22,963 nt of DNA. It comes from a virus. Taxonomy: Duplodnaviria > Heunggongvirae > Uroviricota > Caudoviricetes. Positions 12,001 through 15,000 of this stretch are shown piece after piece; position 1 is the first letter of the stretch; every line of letters begins with the position of its first letter. The stretch spans positions 1-22,963 of IMG/VR virus record IMGVR_UViG_2802429249_000003, one strand, 5' to 3'. The position numbers were made by a program.

Positions 12001-15000
12001 ACAAAGAGGAATATGGAAAGAAGGGGTACATGTATTAAAAGTCGACGGAGTTAAAGAACGTTGGGTCGACTTAATGGAGATTACAAAATGGGCAAGAAAG
12101 AACAAGGATCACTATCTCTCCCTAGAGGAGTAACTATTCGCCAGCATAAAACTGGTAGCACTCTGGTTATCACTTTTACATATAAAGGGGTTCTGTGTCG
12201 GGAGCCCCTCTCCAGAATGGAAGTAAACGCGCGCGGTGTGAAGTACGCCGAGCGTCTGCTGGGAGAAATAAAAAATCAGATTATCGATGGTACCTTCGAA
12301 TATGCAAAATACTTCCCCAACTCCCAAAAGCTGGAGTTGTTCGGGGGAGTGAAAAAAAACAAAAATATAAAATCTTACCTGGATGAATACCTGATTATCT
12401 GCCAGAACCGTAACCTGTCACCATCGACAATTAGAGGTTATGAAAAATGCCTGTCGGCGCTGTCAGCATTGCATAAATTTCATGTATCAGAACTGACACC
12501 TGCAGTACTAAAAAACTGGATCGCCAGCAGAAAAACAAAACTGAAAACTATCCGCAATAATCTTTCATTCCTGCGCAGCGCCATAGATGAAGCGGTGACC
12601 GATGGTTTGTTAACAATAAATCCTGTCACGCTAGTCAGCGCCAGCCGGTATCACGTATTGGACAACACACCAGGCAGTGATGATTACGAGGTCGATCCTT
12701 TTACACCAGCGGAGACGGCAGCAATCTATAACGCCTGTCATTACCCGGAATGGCGAAATCTGTTTCGCTTTGCCTTTAATACAGGACTGCGCAGCTCAGA
12801 ATTGTGCGCGTTGCGCTGGATGGATATAGACTTTATCGGCAACACCGCGCATGTTCAGACTGCAAGCGTAGTCGGGGTAATCAAAAGCACCAAAACAAAA
12901 GCCGGCACCCGCAAAGTGCAACTGAACAGCGAAGCGCTGGCGGCTCTTCAGGCACAAAAGCCCTACACGGCGCTAAAGAGCGACTTCATATTCAGCGATC
13001 CGAAAACTCGCGCTCCTTGGGCAAACGCAGATGCGATCCGAAAAAAAGCCTGGGTACCAACCCTTAAAAAAGCTGGTGTACGCTATCGCAATCCGTACCA
13101 GACACGCCACACGTTCGCCACTCGGCACATTAGCCAGGGCGTTAACCTGTTCTGGCTTGCTGGTCAGATGGGGCATAAAGGACCGGAAATGCTGTTCAGA
13201 CATTACGGCTCTTACCTTGCAGAATACGATGGAAAAACGGCGATTTCTGCAACCCCGTAACGGCAAAATATTTCAAAATGTTGTACAGAATCAGGACGTT
13301 ACCGGGACAACAATATGTACGTAAAATGCACATAATTCATTGTTTGAAAAAATAAATCGTTCATATTCAATAAATTGGATTAATCACGATCACGGGTTCA
13401 ACTCCCGCCAGCTCCACCAAAATTCTCCATCGGTGATTACCAGAGTCATCCGATGAAGTCCTAAGAGCCCGCACGGCACAAGCCCTGCGGGCTTTTTTGT
13501 GCCCTCAGTTTGTCCCGCGAAGTCTGAAGAGAACTAATTAAATCCGAACCTTTTAGGCCCATTGATAGGCCCAACGAAAAGCTCTATTGTTTTCGTTGGG
13601 CCTAAACGCATGGAGACTCCCCATGGCAAGAAAAACCAAGCCGTTAACCGATACGGAAATCAAAGCCGCCAAACCTAAAGATGCCGATTACCAGCTGTAT
13701 GATGGTGACGGGCTTACTCTGCTAATCAAGTCCAGCGGTAGTAAGCTCTGGCAATTCCGTTACTATAGGCCTCTAACCAAGCAGAGAACCAAACAGAGCT
13801 TCGGTGCCTACCCTATCGTCTCGCTTTCTGATGCACGTAAACTCAGAGCCGAATCTAAAGTTTTATTGGCGAAAGACATTGATCCGCAGGAACATCAGAA
13901 AGAACAGGTCAGAAATTCACAAGAGGCCAAAACCAACACTTTCTTGTTAGTCGCCGAACGTTGGTGGAATGTGAAGAAAGCCAGCGTAACAGAGGACTAT
14001 GCCGACGATATCTGGCGCTCGCTTGAGAGAGATGTTTTCCCAGCAATCGGTGATATCAGTGTCACTGAGATTAAGGCTCATACTCTGGTTAAAGCAGTTC
14101 AGCCTGTTCAGGCCAGAGGGGCATTAGAGACTGTTCGCCGCCTTTGTCAGCGTATTAACGAAGTCATGATTTATGCGCAGAACACGGGCCTGATTGATGC
14201 GGTTCCCAGCGTAAACATCGGGAAAGCATTTGAGAAACCGCAGAAGAAAAATATGCCGAGTATCCGCCCGGATCAACTTCCACAGTTAATGCAAACAATG
14301 CGTACAGCAAGTATCAGTGTGTCCACGCGGTGTCTGTTCATGTGGCAGCTTCTCACCATCACCCGTCCTGCCGAAGCTGCTGAGGCTAGATGGGATGAGA
14401 TCGATTTTGTTGCTAGCGAATGGAAAATTCCAGCAGCCCGAATGAAGATGAACCGGGACCATACGGTTCCACTATCCAATGAGGCTCTCTCTATTCTGGA
14501 AATGATGAAGTCACTCAGTGGTGGCCGAGAATTTATCTTTCCCAGTCGCATTAAGCCTACCCAGCCGATGAACAGCCAGACAGTGAATGCAGCCCTTAAG
14601 CGTGCAGGCTTAGGAGGCGTTCTCGTATCACACGGTTTACGTTCTATCGCCAGTACGGCACTCAATGAGGAAGGATTTCCTCCCGATGTCATTGAAGCAG
14701 CACTGGCTCATGTAGACAAAAATGAGGTACGTCGCGCTTACAACCGAAGCGATTACCTTGAGCAACGTCGTCCTATGATGCAGTGGTGGGCCGATTTTGT
14801 AAGCAAGGCCGACAGCGGGAGCAATGTTGAAAACGGGAAAAGAGAGTTAAAACTTGTAGTCTGAGCCTCTAGCTAGATTGGTTTTATTGGTGAGTTTTTC
14901 CAGGTAAAAGTGCAATGACTCAAACCTGCTCTGCAGGTTTCGAGGGTAGATCGCAATCGAACCTGACAGTCTGGTTTGTGGCAGGAGCAGACGTTGCTAC

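Follow-up and report, generated by a model that had tools for sequence, protein, structure and literature searches.

A displaced ssrA 3′ end between a lambdoid prophage and a CP4-57-like island

The Lambdoid Prophage and Its P Arm

The DNA analysed, referred to here as the window, is a 22,963 nt stretch covering positions 1 to 22,963 of the Caudoviricetes record IMGVR_UViG_2802429249_000003. Positions 1..13392 hold the right-hand (early-region) part of a lambdoid prophage, recognized through Pfam and Rfam matches and extending past the left end of the window; over approximately 750-13400 this prophage is 92-96% identical to ssrA-sited prophages in complete E. coli genomes. The gene order is lambda-like, with a CI-type repressor, a Q antiterminator, a replication module, and xis-int all present; Q lies at 615-1025, a DnaB-type helicase with its loader and initiator at 1279-4380, and the CI-like S24/HTH repressor at 7323-8054, and an SPFH protein is also encoded in the early region. 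Xis is a 69 aa excisionase (11924..12133, + strand) whose reading frame overlaps the start of int; it matches PHROG 2917 ‘excisionase’ (E = 1.5e-40), and Pfam returns no match for this ORF. The integrase is a 390 aa tyrosine recombinase (12088..13260, + strand) with Pfam domains Arm-DNA-bind_2 and Phage_integrase and a match to PHROG 1. The mechanical start of the int ORF is a TTG at 12061; the gene of equal length (1173 nt) in relatives is annotated as a tyrosine recombinase, and the catalytic motifs RHTFATRH...GH...RHY are legible in the sequence.

A hok toxin ORF (70 aa, PF01848) and a sok antisense RNA (RF01794, 116.9 bits) occupy 255-578 on the minus strand, immediately downstream of Q, a position at which Stx-converting relatives have late-region cargo. 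A C4 antisense RNA (RF01695, 84 bits) and isrK (RF01394, 65 bits) lie at 5206-5394, also on the minus strand, and overlap the 5′ part of an Ash/Rha-domain ORF (4789-5451) on the identical strand; together these constitute a P1/P7-style C4-antirepressor immunity module in a prophage that also has the CI-like S24 repressor.

The int stop codon (13260) is followed by 132 nt (13261..13392, + strand) that form the P arm of the prophage attachment site; the arm has 30% G+C against 46% for the window, is unrelated to ssrA, giving no alignment to the ssrA body, and aligns with the int-to-core arm of the free phage LMessi. Ten complete E. coli genomes carry it with 100% identity, and joined to the attachment core it is found in 28 of the 5426 complete E. 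coli genomes. The P arm contains a 19 nt motif, ATATGTACGTAAAATGCAC, at 13313-13331, which is unique within the window and has the counterparts ATATACACGCAAAATGCAC or ATATGCACGTGAAATGCAC in the P′ arms of relatives (loci L014, L003, and L004); all of these are candidate arm-type sites for the Arm-DNA-bind_2 domain of the integrase.

The ssrA 3′ End

The P arm ends at a 27 nt segment, CGGGTTCAACTCCCGCCAGCTCCACCA, at 13393-13419 (+ strand), which matches the final 27 nt of E. coli ssrA at 27 of 27 positions and is oriented like the gene itself; this displaced 3′ end comprises the T-stem, the T-loop, the 3′ acceptor strand, and the CCA. The ssrA reference was that of E. coli CFSAN061762 (locus L001), annotated at 2665-3027 (363 nt) with an identical ARAGORN call; the counterpart of the 27-mer is 3001-3027, and the alignment of the window to this locus covers ssrA only from its last 27 nt on. 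The orientation of the 27-mer also agrees with the smpB-ssrA-intA order in this locus and in the prophage-free locus L010 described below. The window contains one copy of the 27-mer with up to 3 mismatches allowed, against 0 copies in 100 shuffles; neither the 27-mer nor its last 15 nt (up to 3 mismatches) recurs to the right of 13419 in the window, and a direct-repeat search over 13300-22963 returned only short pairs at chance level.

Neither ARAGORN nor Rfam (gathering thresholds) finds a tmRNA in the window, which rules out a complete ssrA upstream of the 27-mer. The initial annotation had identified 13393-13419 as the ssrA 3′ end, and this is borne out by the identity to an annotated, ARAGORN-confirmed gene; a complete tmRNA body upstream, the observation that would have spoken against it, was found by neither program nor by alignment to ssrA. 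Its description of the upstream DNA as an AT-rich phage arm agrees with the base composition and the LMessi alignment given above, and its approximate distances are refined to 132 nt between the end of int and the 27-mer and 203 nt between the 27-mer and the ATG of the second integrase gene (13623).

The CP4-57-like Island

Immediately right of the 27-mer, 13420..13498 (+ strand) contains a trailer and an intrinsic terminator, with a hairpin at 13480-13494 followed by a T-run. The longer interval 13420-13640 shows approximately 98.7% identity to the spacer between ssrA and intA in hundreds of E. coli genomes, and 13420-13498 is identical in L010, where it stands directly 3′ of an intact ssrA. 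This segment had been described as the downstream terminator of ssrA, which holds in the sense that it occupies that place in prophage-free ssrA-intA strains; its reading as the native chromosomal terminator of ssrA is rejected, since the DNA belongs to the island. The K-12 annotation places the start of CP4-57 15 nt before the end of ssrA, inside the gene, and the sequence after the CCA differs by element, as in strain ‘numer 3’, where another island follows the same 27-mer with a different sequence and its own hairpin; 13420-13498 is therefore assigned to the left arm of the IntA island. The ssrA trailer comes from whichever element adjoins the gene.

IntA is a 413 aa P4-type tyrosine integrase (13623..14864, + strand) with Pfam domains Arm-DNA-bind_3, Phage_int_M, and Phage_integrase. 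Comparison with the K-12 ssrA-intA region, which had been proposed at the outset, gives 94% amino-acid identity between the two IntA proteins and 92.5% nucleotide identity over 13393-14802.

The cargo of the island (14865..22963) continues past the right end of the window. Its first gene downstream of intA (15134-17932, + strand) encodes a 932 aa nuclease/AAA/SEC-C protein with a weak N-terminal match to Cap4/LmuA/HamA-type nucleases, an AAA_22 ATPase domain, and a C-terminal SEC-C motif. In E. coli genomes the protein is labelled only ‘SEC-C metal-binding domain-containing protein’, and PADLOC assigns it to no system; it is a candidate for a single-gene anti-phage defence. To the right of this gene lie ORFs for hypothetical proteins, a YfjJ-like ORF (21370-22050, minus strand), and a truncated DUF3987/YfjI-like ORF (22345-22866, minus strand). 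No match to AlpA was obtained among the ORFs scanned in 14865-22963; synteny puts alpA beyond the end of the window, upstream of the DUF3987 ORF.

Draft contigs with the identical island end no more than 25 nt from the right end of the window, inside the DUF3987 (YfjI-like) ORF, and this common end suggests an assembly break at a repeat. In other contigs (L007-L009) the match to the window breaks off at 21840, with a truncated YfjJ-like ORF at that point; in L008, IS3-family genes occupy this position.

Attachment Sites in Relatives and in a Free Phage

A 501 nt junction query matched 772 complete E. coli genomes; in about 760 of these the homology begins at query position 194, which is window position 13393, with ssrA and intA annotated beneath. 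An exact-protein look-up with the 932 aa ORF recovered the identical island in two states. L010 (GCA_013368865.2) matches window 13393-22963 at 100% identity and shows the order smpB, intact ssrA, intA without a prophage; L012, with 100% identity over window 5134-22938, has the tandem state with a prophage. No contig recovered by this look-up extends to the left end of the prophage. L010 is taken to represent the natural empty site, attB, of the prophage.

Strains 2015C-4136CT1 and cq9 have the same int, P arm, and right junction as the window, and in both, smpB and an intact ssrA are followed by the prophage, int, the 27-mer, and another integrase island; the prophage is approximately 42 kb in 2015C-4136CT1 (Stx2f and CDT) and approximately 44 kb in cq9 (Stx2e). 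The left and right prophage junctions of 2015C-4136CT1 have exactly the 27 nt in common. The attP of the free phage LMessi reads int, P arm, 27-mer, and P′ arm, and its arms are homologous to the right junction of the window and to the left junctions of the relatives. All four classical sites of integrative recombination are thereby represented: the free phage supplies attP, L010 attB, the lysogens attL, and the window attR.

The breakpoint agrees to the base with the block of identity between attP and attB. The deletion, rearrangement, or misassembly of an ssrA that once stood here complete, with the 27-mer as its remnant, would suit the fact that the fragment alone is visible and that the window resembles a short draft contig with assembly breaks nearby; this origin is rejected and has practically no chance of being correct, as it is contradicted by the homology of the DNA left of 13393 to a free-phage attP arm right up to the core, by a P-arm/27-mer junction that is 98-100% identical in 18 finished genomes, and by that same base-exact breakpoint.

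From these alignments the 27-mer is the identity block of the prophage right junction (attR), and it also holds the core of the attL of the IntA island; on the right the prophage thus ends at 13419, and the IntA island begins within 13393-13419. The attachment-site reading accounts for the blank result of the tmRNA finders in the window. The initial annotation had regarded the segment as a duplicated att core and had expected the intact ssrA at the opposite (left) extremity of the prophage; the first is corroborated by the match of both junctions to the arm, 27-mer, and arm of the free phage, and the second is the arrangement seen in 2015C-4136CT1 and cq9, from which that of the source strain, whose left end lies outside the window, is inferred. 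With xis, int, and attR all intact, the prophage may still be able to excise.

The 27 nt are the attP/attB identity block and are distinct from the crossover segment. CGGG and CCCG on either side of the 7 nt T-loop form an inverted repeat within the 27-mer, and inverted repeats of this kind often serve as core sites of tyrosine recombinases. At related attP-like loci the mismatches are confined to the first seven positions of the 27-mer, a faint hint that the phage Int crossover might lie further 3′ within it, although these loci may use other integrases.

At the left junction of the prophage, the P′ arm that follows ssrA carries a phage-supplied hairpin and T-run (L014 of cq9, 2848-3050; L003, 26746-26900; L004, 3859-4060). 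The terminator stems differ among cq9, 2015C-4136CT1, and LMessi with pairing kept, which indicates compensatory changes. The 27-mer joined to the P′ arm was found at 54 further loci, in 11 species-representative genomes (of Atlantibacter, Enterobacter, Pseudocitrobacter, Citrobacter, Erwinia, and Trabulsiella) and 43 viral contigs; the ssrA body lies upstream at 39 of the 54 loci, which are left junctions, and other, mostly AT-rich, arms do so at 14, with the one further locus too short for classification. The left junction of the source strain is predicted to read ...GGACGCGGGTTCAACTCCCGCCAGCTCCACCA followed by the P′ arm CTTTTGATAGGACTGCAACCGGACAG...

Two Elements in Tandem and the Order of Integration

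The prophage integrase and IntA share 28% identity over 110 aa, which marks the two elements as independent, and other genomes have one or the other integrase by itself at ssrA. The tandem of two elements at ssrA proposed in the initial annotation is thus upheld, with unrelated integrases that each head their own element and a shared 27-mer as the seam. The window very probably represents the internal junction of a two-element array in which the CP4-57-type island came first and the lambdoid phage later.

In the proposed history, a CP4-57-type island with a P4-like IntA would have integrated first, directly after ssrA, giving the gene its last bases and its terminator. The attP of a lambdoid phage, carrying a 27 nt copy of the ssrA end, would then have recombined with the 3′ end of ssrA. 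After this integration ssrA would be complete at the left prophage end and would have a phage-supplied terminator, and the original 27 nt would lie at the right prophage end (13393-13419), where they would have kept their connection to the trailer, terminator, and intA of the island.

Because both orders of arrival yield the same product (PMC7192596), the sequence alone cannot give the order, and the argument for the island as first arrival comes from the distribution of the two elements. In the reversed order the lambdoid prophage would have entered ssrA first and the IntA island would later have integrated into the core at its right junction; tandem arrays are able to grow via either restored core with the same final sequence (PMC7192596), and this prophage right junction has many partners, other integrase islands standing next to it in cq9 and ‘numer 3’. 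This order is nonetheless improbable, since the identical island (100% over 9.5 kb) stands right after an intact ssrA with no intervening prophage in the majority of the contigs read for the exact 932 aa protein, only L009 and L012 among them being tandem, and the prophages of these two are unlike each other with the island constant. The commonness of ssrA-intA adjacency, seen in hundreds of genomes, against the 28 of 5426 with the P arm argues in the same direction, and an island-first history is preferred on these combined grounds.

Comparison with Known Elements

The closest known relative of the island is CP4-57 of E. coli K-12 at ssrA-intA, which it resembles in the 94% identical IntA and in the YfjJ-like and DUF3987/YfjI-like genes; the approximately 200 nt of trailer, terminator, and spacer from the CCA to intA are approximately 92% identical to the window, intA included. 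The island differs in that the 932 aa nuclease/AAA/SEC-C gene stands where CP4-57 has yfjH/alpA/abpAB, the yfjI-yfjJ module is on the opposite strand, and its left junction is on a displaced fragment, whereas that of CP4-57 is on the working ssrA. The right-end repeat of CP4-57 in K-12, ACTCCGCCAGCCCACCA (annotated as the psaA pseudogene), reproduces the final ~19 nt of ssrA imperfectly, which places the IntA core inside the 27 nt; the corresponding right end of the window island lies outside the window and is expected from relatives. Excision of the K-12 island removes only U357 of ssrA and inactivates the tmRNA, so that ribosome rescue passes to ArfA (PMC10107115); given this loss of U357 alone, the K-12 IntA crossover would lie within GCCAGC, between the two repeat differences.

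The closest relatives of the prophage are the Stx2f and Stx2e prophages at ssrA (2015C-4136CT1, 377323_2f, and cq9), in which xis, int, the P arm, and the 27-mer are 95-100% identical to the window and the orientation is the same, with int beside the displaced fragment and an integrase island next. Prophages of the cq9 type are also approximately 94% identical to the window in the replication and immunity region. The window differs from the ssrA Stx prophages in having hok/sok left of Q, and homology ends near window 750-920. Stx2f with cytolethal distending toxin is carried by 2015C-4136CT1 (L002/L003, NZ_CP027550.1) and 377323_2f and Stx2e by cq9 (L014, NZ_CP031546.1); the early region of the window is nearest to the Stx2e group, and the window ends before the stx position. 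In LMessi (PP925823.1) int has 79% nucleotide identity to the window and is accompanied by a P arm, the 27-mer, and a P′ arm, from which the junctions of the lysogens can be reconstructed; its ssrA identity block is a few bases longer than that of the window (TTCGGACACGGG...).

The ssrA gene is a typical site of Stx2f phages, and intA beside an ssrA Stx2f prophage has been read as a remnant of an earlier element (PMC11597368). For EPEC, the EspC island has been placed at ssrA (PMC7545054); it stands behind the prophage in 2015C-4136CT1 and 377323_2f. A regenerated gene and a displaced fragment form the basis of Islander and TIGER, as do tandem arrays whose units each have an integrase and a fragment of their own, a known pattern at tRNA and tmRNA genes (PMC4383910; PMC7192596). 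The arrangement in the window shows no difference in kind from such arrays, one of its two displaced fragments falling within the window.

Implications for ssrA as an Integration Site

The arrangement is ordinary and well documented, and only this pairing of elements is new to the complete-genome collection: in a megablast search with the whole window, the best complete E. coli genome covers 53%, and with coverage no higher than this the exact pairing is absent from that collection. The current understanding of integration at tmRNA genes is unchanged. Downstream of the ssrA CCA the DNA, the familiar K-12 terminator included, belongs to mobile elements and varies by strain, and the int/att module is common to Stx2e and Stx2f converting phages, which makes the occupancy of ssrA relevant to the typing of such lysogens.

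A more speculative suggestion, which is considered possible and rather unlikely, is that the prophage acts as a buffer between ssrA and the CP4-57-like island, uncoupling excision of the island from the scar it would leave in ssrA; with the attL of the island on the displaced fragment, its excision would spare the working tmRNA gene. This reading requires an imperfect right-end repeat in the island, as in K-12, and both elements to be active. If true, lysogeny would rewire a ribosome-rescue switch that is controlled by island excision, and the working ssrA would also depend on a phage-supplied terminator.
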